Origin: a virus
UHGV virus genome: UHGV-0060500
DNA length: 52,459 bases
Direction: 5' to 3' (one strand)
Position numbers and translations under genes: made by a program. A model generated the notes under the pieces. The model was not told the DNA's origin, did not search any database, and saw only the letters and a program-made list of their open reading frames with translations. Of this stretch, positions 5,386 through 39,636 are shown in pieces (position 1 is the stretch's first letter; the number at the start of each line of letters is the position of its first letter).

Positions 5386-6504
5386 TTACAAAATGGAATA
5401 TTCAGGGTAATAAACAAAGCGCCCGATTTCCCCGTGATCAGGACTGTAAATTATTACCGCCGCCAGACGCCGCGACCGCCAGCCGCCATTCGTTGAATAA
5501 GCGTCTTTGCCCGCTAACGTGCCGTGATACTCAACAACGCCTAACGATGATTCAATCAACCGTTGGTGGTGCCAGTGCCCGCAATGAGCATAAACCGCCG
5601 CAGACTTACCGAAATCTTCCCGCCAGTCAGAGACGCAGGCAGACAACAAATTTTCTGGTTTTTTGATGGTGTGTCCGTGGTGGTAAGCAAGGAATGTTTT
5701 GCCGTACTGTGTGTGGTGTACGATAGCAGGTGACACGTCAACCGTTACGCGCGGTTCATCTTCGTAAAAAGCCGCCAGCGCAGCACGTAGCCAAATCATC
5801 CCCGACTGATCGTGATTACCTGATAATACCTGGATTTCGATTTCTTTGTGGTTTAACAACATCTTTCCTACAGCACGGCGGACTGACCGGATCGCCACAT
5901 AAACAAGTTTTGCGTAGCGTGAATCGCAATCAAGTACGTGATTGCTTGATGGCGTCACTGGCAACAGCCCATCAGTGTGAAGAACATCCCCACCGAGAAG
6001 CAATACAGCTTTTTCAGACATCGGCGCTGCGCCTACCGCGTAGTCAAAGAAATCATTTAGCACGCGTTCAGCGATCCCGGTGTCGTAGCTCTCACCGCAT
6101 TCAGCTTTATGAGCAAGCGCCCCGATATGCAGATCGAATACCGGATAAAGGGCCAGGCTTTTTTGGAAATCAATTTCCGGCACTGGCACGGCCTCCGCGC
6201 GTGGCATGTCTTCCGTGAAAGCATCGCAAGCCGCTTGCATTAGCCTTTCCATTTCATCGCGATCACGGGCTGTTTTAATCCAGCGCATAATCACATTGCC
6301 ATCCTTATCGACGAGCAATGACTCACCATTGACGCCAAAGCCCGGCGCGCGACGCGTGGATATTAAACCGCGTTTCGCCAACCGTGCGCCCAGGCGTTCG
6401 ACGTTGCGTTTTGCCATTCCATATTCTTCTGCTATTTGCTTGTAAGTTTTCCCCTTGTTGTACTCGGCGATCAGTTCCTCATCGCTGATCTTTCTTTGTG
6501 ACAT
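5386..6504 (-). CDS. HTH domain protein fused to calcineurin-like metallophosphoesterase domain (replication-module protein)
   Basis: 372 aa; N-terminal HTH (TYKQIAEEYGMAKRNVERL); phosphoesterase motifs FDLHIG, GGDVLHTDG, SGNHDQ, GHWHH. Confidence 0.6.
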   Translation of the reverse strand: MSQRKISDEELIAEYNKGKTYKQIAEEYGMAKRNVERLGARLAKRGLISTRRAPGFGVNGESLLVDKDGNVIMRWIKTARDRDEMERLMQAACDAFTEDMPRAEAVPVPEIDFQKSLALYPVFDLHIGALAHKAECGESYDTGIAERVLNDFFDYAVGAAPMSEKAVLLLGGDVLHTDGLLPVTPSSNHVLDCDSRYAKLVYVAIRSVRRAVGKMLLNHKEIEIQVLSGNHDQSGMIWLRAALAAFYEDEPRVTVDVSPAIVHHTQYGKTFLAYHHGHTIKKPENLLSACVSDWREDFGKSAAVYAHCGHWHHQRLIESSLGVVEYHGTLAGKDAYSTNGGWRSRRLAAVIIYSPDHGEIGRFVYYPEYSIL

Positions 6505-9427: not shown

Positions 9428-9690
9428 CCCATTAGCATTAGATAGCAGTGACTGACCGCTGAACAGATCCCGCCGTTGCGTGATATTTGTTTTTCGCTTC
9501 GCAGCGACACCGGATTTTTAAAGAGCTTAAGGTAAGTGCCTTTTTGTGCCTTCAGTTATCTTTTTCCTTGCGTCTTTGCAAGTATGGCCTTACCTTGTCT
9601 GCAAGTTTACAAAATGGAATTTTAAGATCAAGGCTTAAAATACACGTTTTGTGACTTGCATCAAACTTTTTGAGGTTATAGGGTAGCGAC
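9428..9690. promoter_or_regulatory. Divergent immunity-region control region between the replication operon and the cI-like repressor
   Basis: 263 bp non-coding region between divergent operons; contains the repeated TGCAAGT elements and one copy of the dispersed GTTTACAAAATGG motif (9605-9617). Confidence 0.5.
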
Positions 9691-10338
9691 ATGAAAACAA
9701 AATGGTATGACTTAGCAAAGCAGCTCATGCGGGCGCAGGGCATGAGCCAGGATTCACTCGCGGATCGTATGGGGATAACTAAAGGCGGCCTGTCACACTG
9801 GCTGAACGGTCGCCGAGAGCCAAATCTTGAAGATATTGCGCGGATTATGCGCGAGCTTGGTCGTCGGCAGTTTACTGTTACACATGATGGCATGGTCATT
9901 GATGATTCTGTTTCTAATACACTTCAGGCCGTGCCGCCGCGTGATTTAGGTAGTTACCCGGTTATTGACTGGAAGGACACAGTAAACAATATGGATGACG
10001 CAAGGCGTTCAGCATTACGACACGTTACGACTAGCGTTATTTGTTCAGATGACAGTTACTGGCTGGTTGCCAAAGGTGAATCAATGAACGCGCCGCAGGG
10101 GTTGAGCATCCCGGCGGGGACGATGATACTTGTGGACCCGCACGCGCCAGCTATTGACGGCAAACTGGTTATAGCCCAGCTTGAGGAAGGGCAGATACCG
10201 ACGTTTAAACAGTTGATTATTGATGGAGGTCAAAGGCTTTTACGTTCGCTCAATCCGCTGTATCCGCCAATCCCTATGAATCCAGAATCAAAAATTATAG
10301 GCGTGGTGGTTGATGCGAAGATCGTAAACCTGCCATAA
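9691..10338 (+). CDS. cI: CI-like repressor (HTH_XRE plus S24 LexA-like peptidase domain)
   Basis: 215 aa; N-terminal HTH (QDSLADRMGITKGGLSHWLNGRREP); C-terminal GESM...K self-cleavage motif pattern. Confidence 0.85.
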   Translation: MKTKWYDLAKQLMRAQGMSQDSLADRMGITKGGLSHWLNGRREPNLEDIARIMRELGRRQFTVTHDGMVIDDSVSNTLQAVPPRDLGSYPVIDWKDTVNNMDDARRSALRHVTTSVICSDDSYWLVAKGESMNAPQGLSIPAGTMILVDPHAPAIDGKLVIAQLEEGQIPTFKQLIIDGGQRLLRSLNPLYPPIPMNPESKIIGVVVDAKIVNLP

Positions 10339-10343
10339 ACATT

Positions 10344-10369
10344 AGCCGCCGAATGGCGGCTTTTCTTTG
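10344..10369 (+). terminator. Rho-independent terminator after the repressor gene
   Basis: Hairpin AGCCGCCGAATGGCGGCT followed by TTTTCTTT. Confidence 0.55.
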
Positions 10370-10838
10370 CCTGGGAAACACCAAAACGTAAACAGAAAAC
10401 GTTATTTATTATTTAAATATCAATGGCATATAAAATATTTTAAAAAAGTATACAAAATGGATTGACTCGATGTTTTACGGGGCGTATATTGCGAGTCAAA
10501 GGAAGGGCGCAGGTAACAAAAGCAACTTCCTGGCACTTTAAAAATCAGGCTTAACACCTTGTCAACCGTGGAGTAACTCCCCGATGGGGGACCGAAAGCG
10601 GCACTGATAACAAGGCGCATGGGGTGTTTAAAGCGTTACATCCCCCACGAAACCGCACGCAAGGCGACGAGTCAGCTTGCTTGGAGTGAGCAAGGTCACG
10701 CCGGGAACGGCGATGATTGCGGGATTAGTTGAAAGATGTTAAGCCGCTCATTAACAATCTGGTCAGCCGCTGGAAGTGCGGCAATTAACGAAGATGATTT
10801 TTTATTAAGTATCATCAAGGATATACGGAGATCAGATT
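10370..10838 (+). promoter_or_regulatory. Long GC-rich untranslated region (candidate early leftward-type promoter and antitermination/structured RNA region)
   Basis: About 470 bp without a plausible ORF, several GC-rich hairpins (CCCCGATGGGGG, GGGGTGTTTAAAGCGTTACATCCCCC), one dispersed-motif copy at 10448-10460. Confidence 0.3.
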
Positions 10839-11129
10839 ATGAGCGTTACAATTATATATGGTAAATGTGATAGCAAAATGAATGCCAGGGAACGCAGAAG
10901 GATAAAAAGAGAAAACGAAAGAAAATCATCACCTGCAATCAATAAAACAGACAATGTGGATAAAGCTATTCGATTTGCAAACGAGGAAAGATGCAAACCA
11001 AATAGCATTAAAGAACGTCGCAAAGGATCAGTAAAATGGTATACGGAAAATGAAAGCGGCAGCTACTACCACGCAACGCAACCACGCCATTTAGGGGAAA
11101 AACCCCTGGATAAAGTCCGCTACCATTAA
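10839..11129 (+). CDS. Putative N-like antitermination protein (arginine-rich motif)
   Basis: 96 aa; MNARERRRIKRENERK resembles N-family arginine-rich RNA-binding motifs; first gene after the repressor; start may be the internal Met at 10878. Confidence 0.4.
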   Translation: MSVTIIYGKCDSKMNARERRRIKRENERKSSPAINKTDNVDKAIRFANEERCKPNSIKERRKGSVKWYTENESGSYYHATQPRHLGEKPLDKVRYH

Positions 11130-11159: not shown

Positions 11160-11282
11160 ATGGTTATTCAGGCGCTTCAATTCAAACTGGCAGTAGCGGA
11201 AATGCTTCACGATGCCGAAATGTGGAGCGCCGCGAATAAAGCCTTATACATAGTGTTAACAGCACGGGAGATTAAATGGTGA
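11160..11282 (+). CDS. Hypothetical small protein (40 aa)
   Basis: ATG with GGAG 9 nt upstream; stop overlaps the erf start. Confidence 0.3.
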   Translation: MVIQALQFKLAVAEMLHDAEMWSAANKALYIVLTAREIKW

Positions 11283-18095: not shown

Positions 18096-18254
18096 AGTTT
18101 ACAAAATGGCGTCATTGCGTGATATGGATCACATAATGGCGCTTTTCGCCTTGTTCTGGTGTATCCATTTTGTATACTTCAAGCAAACAAAATGCTCTTT
18201 AAAAATCCGGCAGCGCTGAAATGCGTAGAAATCACCTGAAAAGGAGAGAGCATT

Positions 18255-23706: not shown

Positions 23707-24006
23707 ATGAAAAGCGATAAATTCATAGCGTGCTGTTTTGTTGAAGTGCCTAAAGGTGATGTTTTCTGTAATTACGAATTTAAAGACAGTTTAGGCCGAT
23801 CTCATGTTGTTGTTGGTAAGCGCGGTGACTGGTTATATATAACAGACGACGACATGATTTTTACCAGAAATCAACTATTTCACATCAACTCGGTAAATAA
23901 TTATGCGCCAGTTGCCGCTATATCCATGATGGATCTTAAATCTAATATGTGGCTTGAAAAGGACACTGTGCATAAAGCGCGTAGCTTACCTGGTGCGGAG
24001 TTTTAA
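23707..24006 (+). CDS. Hypothetical protein (99 aa)
   Basis: ORF. Confidence 0.4.
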   Translation: MKSDKFIACCFVEVPKGDVFCNYEFKDSLGRSHVVVGKRGDWLYITDDDMIFTRNQLFHINSVNNYAPVAAISMMDLKSNMWLEKDTVHKARSLPGAEF

Positions 24007-24008
24007 TT

Positions 24009-24266
24009 ATGGTTGTGTTCAGGCTGTGGCGCGGCAATAGCATACTCGATGGCGAGTACAGCCGCGTGATTGAAGATGTTAATCGCGGGCGTTTTTATGA
24101 ACTGGCATACAGGGAGGCAATGGAGAACACCTATTTTGATGAGTCAATCCCTATGTGGCGGAAGATGTCTGGCGAAATAGCTTTCGCAATGCGCCACGGG
24201 TTTTATACAGATCATAACACGCTAATTGATGCCGAACTGGTGACAATTCTTTACGAAGGAGAATAA
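24009..24266 (+). CDS. Hypothetical protein (85 aa)
   Basis: ORF. Confidence 0.35.
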   Translation: MVVFRLWRGNSILDGEYSRVIEDVNRGRFYELAYREAMENTYFDESIPMWRKMSGEIAFAMRHGFYTDHNTLIDAELVTILYEGE

Positions 24267-24269
24267 CAA

Positions 24270-24593
24270 ATGTCTAAATTTATCAGCGTTAAGGTTTTCC
24301 GTGGCACTATTCCAGAAGATAAAAAATATGGACAATTCGCCGGACAACCTGGCGCATGTTTCCGTGTAGCCACTGACGACGAAGTTAGTGTCAAATGCTT
24401 CCATGTAGCTGAACCGCCTTTTGACGTGAAAGACCTTGATAATGCAGATCACGTTAAACATTTTGTTTTCGCATCGGTAGTGCTTAATCCTTGCCCTGAT
24501 GCTGAAGTGGAATTGCTTGGGGCTGAACTGGTTGCAGAATACCAAATGACTGAAGGAGAAAACGGAGGGATTGAAATTGAGCGCATCAAGTAA
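24270..24593 (+). CDS. Hypothetical protein (107 aa)
   Basis: ORF. Confidence 0.4.
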   Translation: MSKFISVKVFRGTIPEDKKYGQFAGQPGACFRVATDDEVSVKCFHVAEPPFDVKDLDNADHVKHFVFASVVLNPCPDAEVELLGAELVAEYQMTEGENGGIEIERIK

Positions 24594-24822
24594 GCTATAC
24601 AAGATCAGGTGTAAAGGCGAATATCCTGGCTTTACGATTGGTTGCGAATACATGGGCCACATTGGGTACGGCCCTTTCGGTGAATTAGGGATGAATACGC
24701 TGGACGACGACGGCGACAGCAGGACGCTTGATCTTGATTCTGATGATTTCGAATACATCCCGCCGATAACTTACCGCGACGTTGATGATTTCATGGCTGA
24801 ACATGACGACGAGGACGATTAA
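24571..24822 (+). CDS. Hypothetical acidic protein (83 aa)
   Basis: ORF with Asp-rich C-terminus. Confidence 0.35.
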   Translation: MKLSASSKLYKIRCKGEYPGFTIGCEYMGHIGYGPFGELGMNTLDDDGDSRTLDLDSDDFEYIPPITYRDVDDFMAEHDDEDD

Positions 24823-24954
24823 ATGGAAGAGTGGTATAAAAATTTATTAATCATGTTTCTTTCTGAAAATTGGGCGCTATTTGAGCGTTTTTGCGAGGAA
24901 CATGGTGAAGACCCTAACGATATTTATCACGATCTTGGTGGTGAAGATGACTGA
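24823..24954 (+). CDS. Hypothetical small protein (43 aa)
   Basis: ATG immediately after the upstream stop. Confidence 0.3.
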   Translation: MEEWYKNLLIMFLSENWALFERFCEEHGEDPNDIYHDLGGEDD

Positions 24955-25144
24955 ATGCCTTATTGTTGCGGTAGTTATAATTTACCTGGCTGGTGTCATT
25001 TTAATGGGCGCTTTTCAGAAGGCTGTTGATAGTGACGGCGTTATTTGGTTCGAGCTAGTCTTCTGGCCTTTCATTACGATATACGCATTCAGTGATGCTA
25101 TGCGTATTAACATCATGCGAGCCATTAAGGAGCGCAAAAAATGA
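24947..25144 (+). CDS. Small membrane protein (about 65 aa)
   Basis: MTECLIVAVVIIYLAGVILMGAF...; two hydrophobic helices. Confidence 0.35.
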   Translation: MTECLIVAVVIIYLAGVILMGAFQKAVDSDGVIWFELVFWPFITIYAFSDAMRINIMRAIKERKK

Positions 25145-25323
25145 TTGAAGATGGGGTGTACGCAGCAACAGTAGTCGACGGGTTGTTTTACCGCGTGGAA
25201 GGTGATGATATTCGTATCCGTGTTGGCGGTGGCGAGTGGGTAGCGCCAATCATTAAGACGACGCGAGAAACAATTAAAATATTTCTTGATGCTGGTGAAC
25301 TGGTAAAGGTTAGCGACCTATGA
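25141..25323 (+). CDS. Hypothetical protein (60 aa), paralogue of the next ORF
   Basis: MIEDGVYAATVVDGLFYRVEG... shares the IEDG.Y pattern with the ORF at 25320. Confidence 0.35.
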   Translation: MIEDGVYAATVVDGLFYRVEGDDIRIRVGGGEWVAPIIKTTRETIKIFLDAGELVKVSDL

Positions 25324-25496
25324 ACGAGATCGAAGATGGCATCTATTTGCATAAGGTATTTGACATCGCCTATTTGGTAAGAGGCGAAGAGGTGATGATA
25401 AGGAATGAAGATGTTCCTTATTGGGAATTAAGCGACATGGATCGCGAACACATGCAAACATTGCTTGATAACGGACTGATATACAGAACTGCGTAA
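25320..25496 (+). CDS. Hypothetical protein (58 aa), paralogue of the previous ORF
   Basis: MNEIEDGIYLHKVFDIAYLVRGEE...; ATGA overlap with the upstream stop. Confidence 0.35.
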   Translation: MNEIEDGIYLHKVFDIAYLVRGEEVMIRNEDVPYWELSDMDREHMQTLLDNGLIYRTA

Positions 25497-25560
25497 AGCC
25501 GTATTTGTGGGTCGAAAACAAACAGATTAAAATATTACCTAACAATGCGAAACTGTAACT

Positions 25561-25586
25561 ACCCGGCCCAGTGCCGGGTTTTTGCT
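25561..25586 (+). terminator. Hairpin plus T-tract immediately upstream of the lysis cassette (candidate late-operon terminator/antitermination site)
   Basis: ACCCGGCCCAGTGCCGGGT followed by TTTTGCTTTG, 18 bp before the holin start. Confidence 0.4.
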
Positions 25587-25603
25587 TTGTTGGAGGAAAA
25601 TCT

Positions 25604-25804
25604 ATGTTCGACAGAATACGGGAGGCGTGTGCGTATGTGACTGGGGCCGTAACTGCTTTTTTCGGCGCGATAACCATCAATGACATTGCCGTCTTTGTGG
25701 GTATTTTATCAACCGTAGGCACATTTGCCGTTAATTATTACTTCAAATCACAGGAGAACAAGCGAGCGCAAGAGGAACACGACGCGCGAATGGGGAATAA
25801 GTAA
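25604..25804 (+). CDS. Class II holin (pinholin-like)
   Basis: 66 aa, two TM helices then charged C-terminus (YFKSQENKRAQEEHDARMGNK); followed by a SAR endolysin; SD GGAGG. Confidence 0.7.
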   Translation: MFDRIREACAYVTGAVTAFFGAITINDIAVFVGILSTVGTFAVNYYFKSQENKRAQEEHDARMGNK

Positions 25805-26296
25805 ATGATTAGCCAATCGCTGAAAAACAAGATTGTTGCGGCGGCGGCTGGTGGGGCGATCGCTATTGCGGCGGTGATGATTAAGCCATTAGAGGGCGTG
25901 GAACACGATCCTTATCGTGATGTTGTTGGCGTATGGACTGTTTGCTACGGTCACACCGGAAAAGACATCATGCTTGGGAAGACTTACACGCAATCAGAAT
26001 GCGATGCTTTGTTGAACAAAGATCTACATAAGACCGCAAAAGCGATTGACCCATATATCAAAGTCGAAATATCAGATTTTACCCGCGCTGCACTTTATTC
26101 GTTCGCCTATAACGTAGGCGCAACCAACTTCAAAACATCAACCTTATTAAAGCTACTCAATGACGGCAAGAAATCAGAGGCGTGCGCACAGCTTAAGCGC
26201 TGGGTATACGCTGGCGGTAAGAAGTGGCAAGGCCTGGTTAACCGCCGCGAGGTTGAATATGCCGTTTGCGAATGGGGTGAGAAATGGACAAGGTGA
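25805..26296 (+). CDS. SAR endolysin (lysozyme, T4-lysozyme-like catalytic triad region)
   Basis: 163 aa; N-terminal signal-anchor-release helix [17 protein letters not shown], then E...D...T catalytic spacing ([16 protein letters not shown]). Confidence 0.8.
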
Positions 26297-26754
26297 AGAC
26301 GTTAATCATCGCCGTTGTTGTTTGCATTATTGCCGGACTAACCGCCGTAACGTGTTATTACCAGGGTGAGGCGGCAAGGTTACAGGAAGAAGTCACGGTG
26401 ACGAAAGGCGCACTGAAGACAGCAAGTAACACTATTCAGCAGATGAAGGAGCGAAACGCCGAACTGTCAAAACTTGATAAGAGGTATCACGATGAGATTA
26501 AAGCTATCAGATCTGACATTGCCGATCTGCGCACTGGCATTGATAACGGCACTATCAGGCTGCGCGTCAACGCAATACCGGTGCGAGTGTCTGACCCCAC
26601 CGGAACCGCCAGCGCCATTGATGGAGCCGCCTGTAGACTCACTCCCGACGCTGAATCGGCTTATCTATCCCTCAGAGAACAACTAAAAACGAAAGACGCT
26701 CAGATTACTGGTCTTCAGGACTACATCAAAACTCAGTGCTTACGCAAAGAATAA
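26284..26754 (+). CDS. Rz: Rz-like i-spanin
   Basis: 156 aa; N-terminal TM helix, coiled-coil periplasmic domain; embedded Rz1-like ORF in another frame. Confidence 0.75.
26474..26686 (+). CDS. Rz1: Rz1-like o-spanin lipoprotein (embedded in Rz); start probably the Met at 26492
   Basis: Lipobox LSGC followed by a Pro-rich sequence, entirely inside the Rz gene in the +1 frame. Confidence 0.7.
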   Translation: MIRGITMRLKLSDLTLPICALALITALSGCASTQYRCECLTPPEPPAPLMEPPVDSLPTLNRLIYPSENN

Positions 26755-27032
26755 CAGCGCGTGGACGTGTCGCCGTTTCTGCCAGCCAGCCATAACCGGG
26801 CCAATCCTTCCCGCGAGCGACGGCGGAAATTCAAAAACACGTAATACCGGATCAACAGTCCCATTAACAGGTCAGGCGCTACCTGGGTAGAAGAAAGCGC
26901 CATCCACCAATTTTATAAAATTCTGTAAACGGTACTCACACAGCGCCGTTTTCAGTGTTTTATAGCTGTTTTCACTCCCTGCGGTGTCCAGTTTTGCGGG
27001 GGTTATATTTTTCAGGATAGAGGAATATTCTG

Positions 27033-27575
27033 ATGGCTAAGGGTAAAGGCATTAAGTTGCCTCAATTCAAAGTCCCGCTCTTTGAGCATACAACAGTTTT
27101 CTTCTGCCCGACTCGCGACATGTTCTATGAATTTTGCGAAAAGGCAGGGATCCCAATCGAACCTGATTTCGAACTGGCTGGAGGATTGACGCTTACTTGC
27201 ACTGGTGAGAAAGGCGGTAACTTCTACGTGATCGCAGTATTCGACAATGAGTTGGGTACGCTGGTACATGAATGCGCCCACACTACATTCCACGTCTTAA
27301 GTGATGTAGGCGTCGTGGCGACCACTGATCCAATTCATCCGGCAAACGAGACTTACGCTTACATGGTGGGCCGCATCTTTGACGCATTCTTCCCAATCCT
27401 GGCTGAATCAAACGAAGCGCAGGTTGCAGCAATGCAGGCGGCTGAAGTCGTAGAGAAGGCATTAGAACAGGCAGAACAGCCGAAGGAAGAGGAAAAGCCC
27501 GCTAAGAAAGGCAAACGCAAGCCGAAAGCAAAAGATGCGCTTGTGCCGCGTGTAATGAGCTTTAAACGAGGCTGA
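27033..27575 (+). CDS. Hypothetical protein with HExxH motif and lysine-rich acidic/basic C-terminal tail
   Basis: 180 aa; LVHECAHTTFH (HExxH) and C-terminal EQAEQPKEEEKPAKKGKRKPKAK; SD GAGGAA. Confidence 0.5.
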   Translation: MAKGKGIKLPQFKVPLFEHTTVFFCPTRDMFYEFCEKAGIPIEPDFELAGGLTLTCTGEKGGNFYVIAVFDNELGTLVHECAHTTFHVLSDVGVVATTDPIHPANETYAYMVGRIFDAFFPILAESNEAQVAAMQAAEVVEKALEQAEQPKEEEKPAKKGKRKPKAKDALVPRVMSFKRG

Positions 27576-27577
27576 TT

Positions 27578-28154
27578 ATGGACGCTTACATCATCGCCGG
27601 ATTAATTGGTATTCTGTATTTCTGGTGAGTTTTGTTATTGCCGTACTGATAACCGTAAAGAGCAAGTATTAGATGTGGTGGCAATATGATTGACCCGCTA
27701 ATTATCCTTTCTGCCTGCGTCGCTGTATGGCTGGCGATCATGATATTCATTGAAAGCTGAAGGTATCCACAATGAACGCATACGAAATGCTATTGCTGGT
27801 GGCTGTTATTACAGTTATTGCCGTAGATGTTTATCGGGAGTTTAAAAAATGAAATGGCTTGATTTCTTTTTCCTGATCGTTGCGATTGTTCTCACTATGA
27901 CCGCGCTTGCTCAATAGGTGAAAGCATGAACGCTATTGATATTATGTTGATCGTGTGTACCGTTGCATTAGTTATTATTGGGGTGATTATCAATGTCTGA
28001 TGGTGATTTCTTAATCATGGCTATATGCACGCTGTTAACTGTTATTGTTTTCTTCGCGTAAAGGTAAACAATGAAAGAATTATTCGATTGGTTGGAAGTA
28101 TTAACATACTGTGCAAGTTTTGTTGCTTGCGTATATATCATCAATAAATATTGA
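27578..28154 (+). other. Array of seven tandem micro-ORFs encoding 16-27 aa hydrophobic peptides (27578-27628, 27686-27760, 27772-27852, 27849-27917, 27926-28000, 27993-28061, 28071-28154)
   Basis: Each ATG is preceded by an SD-like purine run; peptides MDAYIIAGLIGILYFW, MIDPLIILSACVAVWLAIMIFIES, MNAYEMLLLVAVITVIAVDVYREFKK, MKWLDFFFLIVAIVLTMTALAQ, MNAIDIMLIVCTVALVIIGVIINV, MSDGDFLIMAICTLLTVIVFFA, MKELFDWLEVLTYCASFVACVYIINKY. Confidence 0.4.
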
Positions 28155-28164
28155 GAGGTGAATT

Positions 28165-28680
28165 ATGGCCCGCACTAAAAAGGCAAAAGCTGACGACAAA
28201 AAGCCAGCCGCAAAAAGGGTGGGCCGTCCGCATGGTTATACCGAAGAAAAGGCGTTAGAAATCTGTGAACTGGTGGCGGACGGTCAGAGCGTTAACAAAA
28301 TTTCGAAGATGCCTGGTATGCCTACCCGTTCAACAATCCTGAAATGGTTTAGAGACGTGCCGGAATTCTCGGACATGTACATGCGCGCGAAGGAAATCGG
28401 CTTCGAGGTATTAGCTGATGAGATCCTCGATATAGCTGATGATGCTAAGAACGTTGATAAAGACCAACTACGCCGCCACCAATTAATGATTGAAACGCGT
28501 AAATGGTTATTGGCTAAGCTACAACCGCGCAAATACGGCGAACGCGTCACACAGGAGATCGTCGGTAACAAGGAAGAAGCACCCGTCCAGGTAGAAGTAA
28601 ATCAGACTACTGTCCTTGAGATAATCGATAACCTGAATAAGGAGTACAATACTCATGGAGACTGCGACGACAAAGATTGA
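28165..28680 (+). CDS. Terminase small subunit
   Basis: 171 aa; N-terminal basic HTH-like region (GRPHGYTEEKALEICELVADGQSVNKISKMPGMPTRSTI), immediately upstream of and overlapping the large subunit. Confidence 0.75.
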   Translation: MARTKKAKADDKKPAAKRVGRPHGYTEEKALEICELVADGQSVNKISKMPGMPTRSTILKWFRDVPEFSDMYMRAKEIGFEVLADEILDIADDAKNVDKDQLRRHQLMIETRKWLLAKLQPRKYGERVTQEIVGNKEEAPVQVEVNQTTVLEIIDNLNKEYNTHGDCDDKD

Positions 28681-30169
28681 CAGAGAGGTTCTAAGGGGGT
28701 TGTGTGTTAAAGGTTGTGCTCCCAAAGACATATCAGCACCTTTGTTTTTTAGTTCCTACTTTTATAAGCAACAGGTTGGCAAGGACTTTTTGGTTGGGCG
28801 TCATCACAGAATAATTGCCGATACGCTACAACGAGTTATTAATGGTGAAATCACCAGGTTGATAATCAACATCCCACCGGGCTATGGCAAAACAATGATT
28901 GCCACAATTCACATGATGGCCCGCTGCCTCGCAATAGAACCCCGCACCAGATTCCTGCATGTATCGTATTCACACGGACTCGCCTTGCTTAATTCCTCAG
29001 AGACAAGAAACATAATCACGATGCCGCAATATCAGGAATTGTGGCCTATGCAAATGCGCAACGATTCGAACGCGAAAAACCTGTGGTGGACCACTCAGGG
29101 TGGCGGCGTGTATGCGACGTCATCGCTTGGACAGGTGACAGGGTTCCGCGCCGGGTACATGGAACCTGGGTTTAACGGCGCAATGATTATTGATGACCCC
29201 CTGAAACCAGCTGACGCTTATTCTGATGTGGTGCGAAAGCAGGTTAATACCAATTACAACGACACGCTTTCTTCGCGCCTGGCTGTGCAAACAACGCCAG
29301 TGATCGTCATCATGCAGCGTATCCACTACGATGATTTATCCGGCTACCTGTTACGTGGCGGTAGTGGTGAGAAATGGCATCACCTTTGCCTGCCAGTGAA
29401 GATCGACAACAGTCTTGACTATTGGGATCTGTACCCGGAAAACAAATTCGCTATTCCTGTTCCTCACAACCTGCCGGATGGCTGGCTATGGTTGCATAAG
29501 CATAGTGATAAAGATGAATCAACTCTTAAATCACATCGCCGAACATTCGAAGCTCAATATATGCAGTGTCCGCGCAAGTTCGATCAAGAGGGCGCATTGT
29601 GGACTGAAGCGATGATAACCGCCGCGCACATGATGCAGATAACGCAGGAGAAAATTCGCACGGTGATAGCCATCGACCCGGCGACAACATCATCTGATGA
29701 GTCAGACGAAACAGGGATTGTAGCCTGTTCCGCTTATGGTGGTGGCAAGAATGCTCAGTATTCAGTAGACGGTGACTACTCAGGCCGCATGTCACCTAAT
29801 GACTGGGCGCAAGCAGCAATGAACGCCTACAACATCCATGAAGCTGACGCGATGGTTATCGAAACCAACCAGGGTGGTGATATGGCAGAGGCCACACTAC
29901 GCAATGCAGGATTTAAGGGCCGCATTGTTAAGGTGCACGCAAGCAAGGGTAAATTTGCCCGCGCCGAACCAATATCTGCATTGTATGCACAGGGTAGGGT
30001 AGCCCACACTGGCAGCCTGTACACGCTGGAAAATCAAATGATGGAATATGTGCCAGCCACCGCTAAAAAATCCCCTGACCGTATGGATGCTATGGTATGG
30101 GGTATCACTGAACTAAGCCAGCCACAGGCGATGGGCCTCATGTTACCTAAGCGCCTGCGAGGGTTTTAA
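28655..30169 (+). CDS. Terminase large subunit
   Basis: 504 aa; Walker A-like PPGYGKTM, ATPase then nuclease domain arrangement. Confidence 0.85.
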   Translation: METATTKIDREVLRGLCVKGCAPKDISAPLFFSSYFYKQQVGKDFLVGRHHRIIADTLQRVINGEITRLIINIPPGYGKTMIATIHMMARCLAIEPRTRFLHVSYSHGLALLNSSETRNIITMPQYQELWPMQMRNDSNAKNLWWTTQGGGVYATSSLGQVTGFRAGYMEPGFNGAMIIDDPLKPADAYSDVVRKQVNTNYNDTLSSRLAVQTTPVIVIMQRIHYDDLSGYLLRGGSGEKWHHLCLPVKIDNSLDYWDLYPENKFAIPVPHNLPDGWLWLHKHSDKDESTLKSHRRTFEAQYMQCPRKFDQEGALWTEAMITAAHMMQITQEKIRTVIAIDPATTSSDESDETGIVACSAYGGGKNAQYSVDGDYSGRMSPNDWAQAAMNAYNIHEADAMVIETNQGGDMAEATLRNAGFKGRIVKVHASKGKFARAEPISALYAQGRVAHTGSLYTLENQMMEYVPATAKKSPDRMDAMVWGITELSQPQAMGLMLPKRLRGF

Positions 30170-30317
30170 GTTATTGATTATTATCAACTTCGAAAAATTT
30201 TCGAAGATGAACAATAATAATTCTCAATTAGCTACACAAAATCTGCCTCACAATCCCTCACGAATTTTTCTATTTTTCGCGTAGCAACGCGTAAACATGT
30301 ATTCAGGAGTAAACATT

Positions 30318-31688
30318 ATGCCATCCAATTTAGAATTGGCGGTTAATGCTGCCTTGTCTCAACGCCAGGCGGCCTTTGCCCGCTATGCAGCGGCACATCC
30401 GTTCACTATGGGGATAGATGCCAAACGTGATGCTGCGTGGAGTGAATACGGATTTAAAGAAGAGATCACGTATCACGATCTATACAAACTGTACAGACGC
30501 GGCGGCATCGCTCACGGTGCTGTAGAAAAGATTGTTACTACTTGCTGGCGCACCAAGCCAAAGATGATTGAAGGAACTGAAGACGAGAAAGCGAAAAAGG
30601 AAACACCGTGGGAAAGAGAAATCAAGAAGAAATTTAACAACAGATTTTGGCGCACTGTTGCTGAATGTGATCGCCGCCGCCTCATTGGTCGTTACTCTGG
30701 TCTGTTAATTCATATCAGAGATAACAAGCCGTGGGATCAGCCAGTGACAAAAGGCGTAGGCATTGCAAAATTTACCCCTGTGTGGGCTGGCGCTCTTACA
30801 CCGAAGGACTTCGAAGAAAACCCGGATAATGAAAACTATGGCCTGCCAACGTGGTGGGAATACAAAGAACGCATTAACAGTAAGACCATTGCCAGAAAGA
30901 TCCACCCTGACCGCATATTCATCTTTGGCGACTATTCTGATGATGTCATCGCTTTCCTTGAACCTTCCTACAACGCATTCGTATCACTGGAAAAAGTGGA
31001 AGGCGGTAGTGGTGAATCATTCCTGAAAAACGCAGCGCGTCAGCTTGCCATTTCGTTCGATAAAGAGATTGACTTCCGTTCCCTGGCTGCAACATACGAT
31101 TGCGACGTTACAGAGTTACGCGAAAGATTCAATGAGGCTACGGCTGAAATGAATAAGGGTAATGACGTAATGATGGCGTTACAGGGTGCGACAGTAAGCC
31201 CGCTGGTTACTGCCGTATCTGACCCGTCATCAACCTATGACGTAAACCTGCAAACCGCCGCCGCTGGTGTTGATATTCCAACCCGCATCTTGGTTGGGAA
31301 CCAGCAGGGAGAACGCGCATCAACCGAAGACCTGCGTTACTTCAACAGCCGCTGCATGACCCGCAGGGAGGAAATCGGTGGCGAGATTGAAGATCTGTTT
31401 CGCAAGATGGCAGATCTACGCCTTATCAGTATGCCAGTAGATGTATCAGTGCTATGGGACGACCTTAACGCCATGACCAAAGCAGAGCTACTGGAAGCCG
31501 CAGACAAGATGGCGCAAATCAATCAGGCTTGTTTGGCTACTGGTGAAGAAATATTTAGCGGCGATGAGATCCGCGAGGCTGCCGGATACGATGGCCCAGC
31601 CAGTGAAGTAGAAACGGAAGAGGATGACGATGATGAAGGTGAAGAAAATAATCAGGCGAATACCTCCAGCCGCGATAATGCCATCTAA
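30318..31688 (+). CDS. Portal protein
   Basis: About 456 aa following terminase, acidic C-terminus; SD AGGAGT before the ATG at 30318 (ORF-track start 30297). Confidence 0.7.
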   Translation: MPSNLELAVNAALSQRQAAFARYAAAHPFTMGIDAKRDAAWSEYGFKEEITYHDLYKLYRRGGIAHGAVEKIVTTCWRTKPKMIEGTEDEKAKKETPWEREIKKKFNNRFWRTVAECDRRRLIGRYSGLLIHIRDNKPWDQPVTKGVGIAKFTPVWAGALTPKDFEENPDNENYGLPTWWEYKERINSKTIARKIHPDRIFIFGDYSDDVIAFLEPSYNAFVSLEKVEGGSGESFLKNAARQLAISFDKEIDFRSLAATYDCDVTELRERFNEATAEMNKGNDVMMALQGATVSPLVTAVSDPSSTYDVNLQTAAAGVDIPTRILVGNQQGERASTEDLRYFNSRCMTRREEIGGEIEDLFRKMADLRLISMPVDVSVLWDDLNAMTKAELLEAADKMAQINQACLATGEEIFSGDEIREAAGYDGPASEVETEEDDDDEGEENNQANTSSRDNAI

Positions 31689-39509: not shown

Positions 39510-39636
39510 AACCCACCACGCTAACTTGATTTACTGACCATTCCCTTTAGCTTCCTTATACAAAATGGAGTCGTTGAAGTAAAGCCATTTTGTATAAAAT
39601 AGATACACAGATCACATTTTTGCATGAGGTTAAATC

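Follow-up and report, generated by a model that had tools for sequence, protein, structure and literature searches.

The stretch of DNA analysed here, the 52,459-nucleotide (nt) virus genome UHGV-0060500 (hereafter the window), derives from a temperate, mEp021-like phage or prophage of Escherichia coli that belongs to the mEpimmI group, and the subject of this study is the interval of 500 base pairs (bp) between the stop codon of its repressor gene (10338) and the ATG of the downstream gene gp17 (10839). There is strong support for the presence in this interval of a 198-nt structured RNA domain (10548–10745) that forms a discrete unit, occurs in only some of the phages and is under tight constraint; it possesses a boxA of its own and lies upstream of the antitermination site nutR1. 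All coordinates are those of the window, and features are on the + strand unless marked (−).

The interval (10339–10838) shares 99.4% DNA identity with phage MagusPhagus and 93.8% with mEp021, and it also matches phages mEp515 and mEp010. It was matched by 35 of 5426 complete E. coli genomes, at a single prophage site in each. The mEpimmI phages are Nus-dependent and non-lambdoid, and their reported frequency among isolates from human faeces matches that of the lambdoid phages (PMC11893012). The gene order, comprising a CI-like S24 repressor gene (9691–10338), the terminator t1, gp17, a Kil-like open reading frame (ORF), erf and ssb, is the same in the annotated genomes of mEp021 and mEp515. 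The terminator t1 (10344–10361) was recovered in a terminator scan as the hairpin AGCCGCC-GAAT-GGCGGCT with a T run behind it. The records of mEp021, mEp515 and mEp013 label it as a terminator, and it is among the terminators that have been shown experimentally (PMC11893012).

The original prediction, made from the letters of the window, placed an N-like gene downstream of the interval, and this is borne out. The gp17 homologue (10839–11129) encodes a protein of 96 amino acids (aa) that is 93% identical to Gp17 of mEp021 and matches PHROG 271, "anti-termination protein N-like" (E 1.3e-13), and its arginine-rich motif (N15-A16-R17, R20-R21, K23-R24) is invariant in seven homologues, as would be expected of a cognate N-like protein. 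A protein search indicated that the Gp17 family is narrow (at least 60% identity), its named sources being only E. coli or unclassified Caudoviricetes, and that it comprises two lineages, the A-type found in the window and a B-type with ∼70% protein identity to it. Overall, the interval is, with strong support, the rightward early control region (promoter, nutR1 leader and N-like gene) of an mEp021-type phage.

The same prediction described about 470 bp of the interval as an unusually long, GC-rich untranslated leader, a description that needs revision on two counts. The GC content of the interval is 44.4%, compared with 46.0% for the window; only 10548–10746 is GC rich (55.8%), and the GC content of 10370–10496 is 29.9%. 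Regarding length, the first ∼130 bp of the gap are upstream promoter and AT-rich operator DNA rather than leader, and a transcription start that would lie near 10498 gives a predicted untranslated leader of ∼341 nt.

Long and short forms of the leader

A total of 43 IMG/VR loci were retrieved through their Gp17 proteins, and in 39 of them the length of sequence separating the terminator from the gp17 ATG was measurable. This length was 476–480 nt in 29 loci and 239–265 nt in the remaining ten, meaning that about a quarter of these related phages are without the domain. The difference between the two forms is a block at approximately 10548–10745, which coincides with the GC-rich hairpin region. 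Phages mEp021, mEp515 and mEp010 carry the long form, and mEp013, mEp044, mEp554 and E. coli PAR the short form; both the A-type and the B-type Gp17 lineages occur with and without the block. No complete association was observed between leader form and the neighbouring gene clusters within 2.5 kb, and the weaker associations fit the lineage structure. Upstream of the block, the long-form leader shares homology with that of the short form, yet the two differ by ∼27% (counted by hand on the aligned sequences), so that neither form is a recent derivative of the other. As the short-form phages mEp013, mEp044 and mEp554 can be cultured, the additional unit is dispensable for viability, which suggests that it is a modulator and not a core part of the system.

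Immediately 5′ of the domain, and overlapping it, is a second boxA-like sequence, boxA′ (GCACTTTAAAAATCAGG, 10533–10549), identified in a boxA pattern search, the last two G residues of which begin the helix that closes the domain. When a 231-nt query covering the element, that is boxA′ and the domain, was used in BLAST, its first 17–18 bases, which include boxA′, matched the boxA of nutR2 with 16/18 identity and that of nutL with 15/17 identity. Apart from a 1-nt change in the length of its A run, boxA′ is invariant in all long-form sequences. Together with the nutR1 boxA it forms a pair of diverged direct repeats that flank the block, identical at 12 of 16 positions. Short-form phages have a single boxA at the junction, TGCTCTTTAACAAT (TGCTCTTTAACAA at the position of the nutR1 boxA), which we take to be the consensus boxA of the ribosomal RNA (rrn) operons.

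The element appears to be confined to this phage group, and always resides in the gap between the repressor gene and gp17. In the INPHARED phage collection it was present only in mEpimmI phages, no copy was found among the PLSDB plasmids, and the complete E. coli genomes held nothing similar outside the prophage. The single hit among GTDB species representatives (L088, in a metagenome-assembled genome labelled Acutalibacteraceae) was a chance 20-mer, 37% identical overall. A metagenome scan recovered 11 loci, ten of them full-length leaders with 87–100% identity to the window and one (L099) ending at a contig edge, and four seed scans of IMG/VR all returned the same 35 contigs. Three further IMG/VR hits, all to one 18-mer (L038, L040 and L041), have unrelated flanks and were dismissed as chance matches. 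A sensitive BLAST search within the window revealed no paralogue of the element, and in a Gp17 protein search for divergent phages, the divergent members carried either the same element or none. Whilst inverted ends and boxA repeats are present, a miniature inverted-repeat transposable element was rejected given the lack of multiplicity, with one place per genome in the 35 E. coli genomes and no plasmid copies.

Comparison with known RNA families was similarly negative. Rfam 15 gave nothing at gathering thresholds for the whole window, and no match inside 10548–10745 at E values up to 10 with permissive filters; a scan for tRNA and tmRNA genes also found none. A CsrA sponge was considered and rejected, there being only five GGA motifs, approximately the number expected by chance, as was a mimic of a CRISPR repeat, for which the similarity judged by eye was poor.

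Predicted fold, conservation and coding potential

The stable GC hairpins that had been noticed at 10560–10650 are real, and are part of a larger fold. The minimum free energy of 10525–10750 was −78.8 kcal/mol (z −2.06), the z score of the whole leader (10497–10845) was −5.03, and pair probabilities in the domain were mostly >0.9. These hairpins belong to the separate, optional 198-nt domain upstream of nutR1, which was not recognised in the original prediction. In the predicted fold, the domain is closed by helix P1 (10548–10566/10728–10745), which has 17 bp with one 1x1 mismatch and one bulged G, and which would place boxA′ and the nutR1 boxA side by side. Two sub-domains follow within it. 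The P2 sub-domain (10567–10649) comprises helix P2 (10567–71/10645–49) with hairpins P2a (10578–82/10587–91) and P2c (10621–27/10638–44), and the P3 sub-domain (10653–10722) comprises helix P3 (10653–57/10718–22) with hairpins P3b (CUUGCUU-GGAGU-GAGCAAG, 10676–10694) and P3c (10695–10716), the latter capped by a GNRA tetraloop (GGAA at 10704–10707, GAAA in seven variants).

Some short repeats were also observed in the element. The pentamer CAAGG occurs at 10611, 10660 and 10690, and CCUUG occurs at 10557, in the 5′ strand of P1; ACAAGG (10610–10615) could pair with CCUUGU (10557–10562) as an alternative to the middle of P1. The ends of P1 (10549–10555 and 10739–10745) resemble the boxA core CTTTAAC, which gives the 3′ strand of this helix partial complementarity to boxA.

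Sequence variation among the homologues is largely compatible with this fold. In the B-type lineage, three pairs of P3b have changed on both sides (CG to AU, UA to CG and GC to AU), a UA pair has become UG in seven sequences, and overall the pairing of this hairpin survives six substitutions; the P3c stem tolerates one change from CG to UG. Across 18 distinct sequences, 99.7% of cells were paired, compared with 37–46% when the partners were slid by one to three columns, although this control is biased, the structure having been derived from the same 18 sequences. Three rare variants break a pair. Three of the substitutions remain paired only on the + strand, as G.U or G-C, and would produce A.C on the − strand, a pattern that speaks for an RNA of the + strand rather than one of the − strand or a cruciform in DNA.

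Nucleotide diversity (pi) was calculated for 39 distinct long-form haplotypes over 2.3 kb in bins of 50 nt, and the block was the least variable stretch of the whole. Values were 0.006 at 10541–10590, 0.004 at 10591–10640, 0.022 at 10641–10690 and 0.043 at 10691–10740, compared with 0.04–0.12 in the repressor coding sequence, 0.05–0.11 in the operator and promoter DNA, 0.10–0.17 from nutR1 to the ribosome-binding site and 0.08–0.15 in gp17. The 5′ edge of the low diversity is sharp, with pi falling from 0.061 at 10491–10540 to the 0.006 of the next bin, and two 18-mers of the block are exact in all 35 IMG/VR copies. We argue that the block is probably the most constrained sequence of the immunity and early region, the alternative being a segment that has spread recently. 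Constraint is favoured by how abruptly diversity falls at the edge, by the age of the divergence seen in the neighbouring leader, and by the preservation of pairing.

As the original prediction had stated, the interval holds no credible ORF. Its ORFs are only 30–66 aa in length, none of these small ORFs matched a PHROG family, and PGAP annotates nothing in the interval across the 35 E. coli genomes. An ORF of 37 aa (10619–10732) is annotated as a coding sequence in the GenBank records of mEp021 and mEp515 (mEp021_16 and mEp515_22, PHANOTATE-style annotation) and is open in nearly all copies, but it is very improbable that the stretch serves to encode this small protein. The distinct substitutions in the ORF comprised 7 synonymous and 13 non-synonymous changes, which is not the pattern of purifying codon selection, the stop codon is lost in one variant, and in an earlier set of 25 sequences only 5 of 16 variable sites were at codon position 3. 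Additionally, the hairpin swap of the B-type lineage converts LAWSEQG into ITWIEWC. Variation here tracks RNA pairing and not codons.

The nut sites, promoter and operator DNA

The original prediction proposed that the leader could carry a nut- or put-like antitermination RNA. The nut part of this proposal holds, as nutR1 is present at 10745–10782, but the GC hairpins at 10560–10650 are not a nut site, and the architecture of put was not matched. The nutR1 boxA (CGCTCATTAACAA, 10745–10757), located through the boxA pattern search and an alignment of relatives, is close to the CGCTCTTTAACAA-type consensus, and there are relatives with a perfect boxA, CTCTTTAACAA; among long-form sequences it varies at four positions. 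The boxB hairpin (GCCGC-UGGAAGU-GCGGC, 10766–10782; pair probability at least 0.995) starts 8 nt 3′ of this boxA and has a purine-rich loop. In the B-type lineage, boxB is GCUAC-UGAAAUG-UAGC, and is found alongside a different arginine-rich motif in Gp17. At the level of sequence, nutR1 therefore has the features of an N-type nut site, which has already been published for mEp021.

Early antitermination by Gp17 of mEp021 takes place at three sites, of which nutL precedes the repressor gene, nutR1 directly precedes gp17 and nutR2 lies further to the right (PMC11893012, section 3.5 and Fig. 7 legend), and Nus- and N-dependent read-through of terminators has been reported for Gp17 with these three sites (PMC11893012). 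The boxA pattern search returned six matches in the window, compared with 0.95 expected, and four of these (three or fewer mismatches) correspond to nutL (9510–9525, −), boxA′ (10534–10549), nutR1 (10747–10762) and nutR2 (18195–18210). The probable nutL (9510–9525, −) has the boxA GCTCTTTAAAAATCCGG followed by a GNRA-type hairpin, CGCU-GCGA-AGCG, and the probable nutR2 (18195–18228) has the same boxA, GCTCTTTAAAAATCCGG, followed by the GNRA-type hairpin GCGCU-GAAA-UGCGU.

A long-range helix of 9 bp is also predicted in the leader, formed between AAUCUGGUC (10756–10764) and GAUCAGAUU (10830–10838) with pair probabilities of 0.93–1.0. It joins the spacer between boxA and boxB of nutR1 to the stretch that separates the Shine-Dalgarno sequence from the gp17 ATG, encloses boxB, and touches the last G of the Shine-Dalgarno GGAG (10827–10830). 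The same helix is predicted in the short-form leader of mEp013. If formed, it could provide for autoregulation of gp17 translation in the style of the lambda N leader.

An early promoter had also been suspected in the interval, and a sigma-70-type candidate that agrees with 10 of 12 consensus positions, TTGACT-17-TATATT, is present at 10462–10490. Both hexamers are invariant in an alignment of seven diverse relatives, and the spacer is variable. An internal promoter candidate at 10729–10758 was rejected, as its −10 hexamer is weak and its transcript would lack boxA. The one copy of a dispersed motif that had been reported from the interval was confirmed by motif search, TACAAAATGGATT (equivalent to TACAAAATGGAWT) at 10451–10463; it abuts the −35 hexamer and the stretch is invariant in seven relatives. 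With two or fewer mismatches allowed, the motif, TACAAAATGGA(W)T, occurs 21 times in the window, compared with 4.9 expected, and may represent an operator or a promoter-associated protein site. Its copies include those at 5387, 9608, 10451, 18162 (−), 39559, 39582 (−), 42170 (−) and 42561 (−); copies adjoin all three nut-associated promoter regions, and those at 39559 and 39582 form an inverted pair 23 nt apart. Between nutL and the repressor gene, at 9600–9660, is a 27-nt imperfect palindrome (TGCAAGTTTACAAAATGGAATTTTAAG / CTTAAAATACACGTTTTGTGACTTGCA), which is probably the leftward operator and divergent promoter region. On the other side, just 3′ of gp17, a 40-aa ORF (11160–11282) matches PHROG 34942 (E 3.7e-32), with a second, weak match to phrog_2055, the Kil septation-inhibitor family (E 1.4e-3).

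Function of the leader unit and comparison with known systems

We consider the odds to be about even (a probability of roughly 0.5) that boxA′ and the domain together form a cis-acting leader unit that modulates either Nus/Gp17 antitermination or the expression of gp17. Under this proposal, transcription would begin at the sigma-70 promoter (10462–10490) under the control of the repressor, and the accessory unit (boxA′ 10533–10549 and domain 10548–10745), inserted between that promoter and nutR1, would act on the nascent early transcript. NusB/NusE would be recruited by boxA′ once ∼50 nt of RNA had emerged, and this early loading would shield the 341-nt untranslated leader from Rho. The complex bound at boxA′ might also retain the first strand of P1 close to the polymerase while its 3′ partner is still to be made; a 5′ strand of a closing helix that is held near the polymerase by boxA is the arrangement of rrn leaders. 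Once folded, the domain would tune the use of nutR1 and of the gp17 ribosome-binding site. It may do so with P3b and P3c serving as extra boxB-like hairpins for Gp17, or through P1 stacked on P2 (∼22 bp), which could form a helix for processing of the RNase III type by analogy with the N leader of lambda. With regard to the former, the loops of P3b (GGAGU/GGAUU) and P3c (GGAA/GAAA) resemble the boxB loops of the nut sites (UGGAAGU, UGAAAU and UGCGAA), and the allele of P3b tracks the type of Gp17 and boxB in every sequence seen, something that linkage alone could explain.

A number of observations weigh against this proposed cis-acting role. The likeness of P3b and P3c to boxB loops was judged by eye, and GNRA-type loops are common in structured RNAs; likewise, the susceptibility of P1 to RNase III is not reliably predictable. 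Short-form phages are viable, and thus the nutR1/Gp17 system works without the element. Covariation across homologues, which had been proposed as a check on the leader, was found in only one of the ten helices, P3b, the other nine never varying and so being neutral for the fold. Even the three compensatory pairs of P3b, which do bear out the structure, are co-inherited in one lineage and may reflect a single event. Finally, the very low diversity of the block could stem from recent spread by recombination, and not from purifying selection.

Rather unlikely, though with several features in its favour, is that the element is the gene for a trans-acting stable RNA, the first to be transcribed after infection or induction and excised at P1, which would act on a target in the host or the phage, for example by titrating a host protein or defence system as a decoy, or by regulating the choice between lysis and lysogeny. 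The domain is self-contained, its two ends being joined by a 17-bp helix, it is accessory in the manner of a moron and sits at the extreme 5′ end of the early operon, and ∼100 nt of it, including the predicted single-stranded GCGGCACUGAUAACAAGGCG, are extremely conserved, which exceeds what a simple cis hairpin would need. However, no promoter or terminator of its own was found, no known family of small RNAs was matched, no convincing complementarity to the rest of the window was detected, and the fusion of an invariant boxA′ to P1 points to co-transcriptional action in cis. It is improbable that the element is instead a functionless relic of an insertion or duplication at boxA, arising, for instance, from illegitimate recombination between nut regions and recently spread by recombination. 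This would account for the two diverged boxA-like repeats that flank the block, for its occurrence at one site in one phage group only, and for the viability of phages lacking it, but diversity drops sharply at the 5′ edge in place of a gradual hitch-hiking decay, and the ∼27% divergence of the leader 5′ of the element from the short form argues against a recent event. The preservation of pairing through six substitutions in P3b, and the retention of the element in both Gp17 lineages, are also difficult to reconcile with a relic.

The prospect of a put-like, factor-independent antiterminator that binds RNA polymerase directly before Gp17 has been made is quite remote. A structured and highly conserved RNA just 3′ of the early promoter, transcribed before the N-like gene, does recall putL and putR of phage HK022 (PMC9378689), yet put is ∼70 nt with two stem-loops, compared with 198 nt, a closing helix and two sub-domains here, there is no significant similarity to a 7-kb stretch of HK022 (best E 1.6), the phage encodes an N-like protein and carries three nut sites, and short-form phages manage without the element. 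Very little probability is assigned to the element acting as DNA, for example as a cruciform recombination site or a protein-binding site. Its terminal inverted repeats, with a bulged G (10561), would suit such a role, but the stem substitutions that are tolerated are of the G.U type on the + strand only, which fits RNA and not symmetric DNA. The ends, GCTTAAC...GTTAAGC (10549–10555 and 10739–10745), fit RYYYAAC/GTTRRRY, which we take to be the R″/R′ consensus of integron attC sites. However, the inner (L) boxes do not fit, 198 bp exceeds known attC sites, no integrase or cassette context is present, and there is one copy per genome; with only the outer boxes fitting, the resemblance was judged to be chance.

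More tentatively, boxA′ and the 198-nt unit may constitute a new class of structured phage RNA, a possibility that we regard as doubtful but not negligible. The nearly invariant sub-domain at 10548–10650 would bind a conserved host machine, whether RNA polymerase or the Nus complex, or else an RNase or a protein of a defence system, and 10653–10722 would co-evolve with Gp17, the whole acting as a "super-nut" that is independent of N or boosts it, or as an immediate-early RNA acting in trans. The nucleotide conservation of the element exceeds that of the repressor gene, and if this is due to the binding of a host machine, the element would be a new phage RNA effector. Antitermination by N and nut is a textbook model, and the cultured sister phages with long and short leaders offer a natural experiment on the effect of an added RNA and a duplicated boxA on Nus-dependent antitermination, leader stability and early timing.

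Among known systems, the nutR1-gp17 module of mEp021 represents the same locus in a close relative, with 93.8% DNA identity, the same gene order, a Gp17 that is 93% identical, nutR1 (boxA and boxB) directly upstream of gp17, and nutL and nutR2 also in the window. This module was reportedly described by Valencia-Toxqui et al. in 2023 (Arch Virol 168:92). The description of these phages in PMC11893012 covers the nut boxes only, with no mention of the 198-nt domain, the second boxA or the division into long and short leaders. The conserved structured RNA just downstream of an early phage promoter is shared with HK022, the put RNA of which is ∼70 nt with two stem-loops and acts without N protein, HK022 lacking N (PMC9378689). 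The element differs in being 198 nt and multi-branched, with two sub-domains of three helices each, and in coexisting with an N-like system. Sensitive blastn of the element against positions 24000–31000 of the HK022 record, which include the immunity region, gave a best match of 14 nt (E 1.6); as the record carries no annotation of putL or putR, the comparison applies to the region as a whole. The P4 CI RNA and the c4 RNA of P1 and P7, small RNAs cut from the 5′ part of an operon, offer an analogy for a trans-acting RNA, but the element matched neither the Rfam C4 family nor any other, and a search of the window for target repeats was negative.

The leaders of rrn operons and of lambda N offer further parallels in organisation. 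As in rrn leaders, a boxA directly precedes the 5′ strand of a long-range helix enclosing a structured RNA, in a phage group that is Nus-dependent; the enclosed RNA, however, is 198 nt and not rRNA, and a second boxA and a boxB follow it. In lambda, PL is followed by nutL, an RNase III-sensitive structure and then N, and N is subject to autoregulation and to modulation by RNase III. The likeness is that of a long, untranslated and structured leader with a nut site ahead of an antiterminator gene, and by analogy the helix between the nut spacer and the ribosome-binding site could support lambda-style autoregulation with modulation by RNase III. There is no sequence similarity, however, and the large structure of lambda lies between nutL and the start of N, whereas the domain in the window precedes the nut site and comes with a boxA of its own. 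The element is best described as a variant N/nut leader, with a second boxA and a large, conserved RNA domain placed ahead of the nut site.

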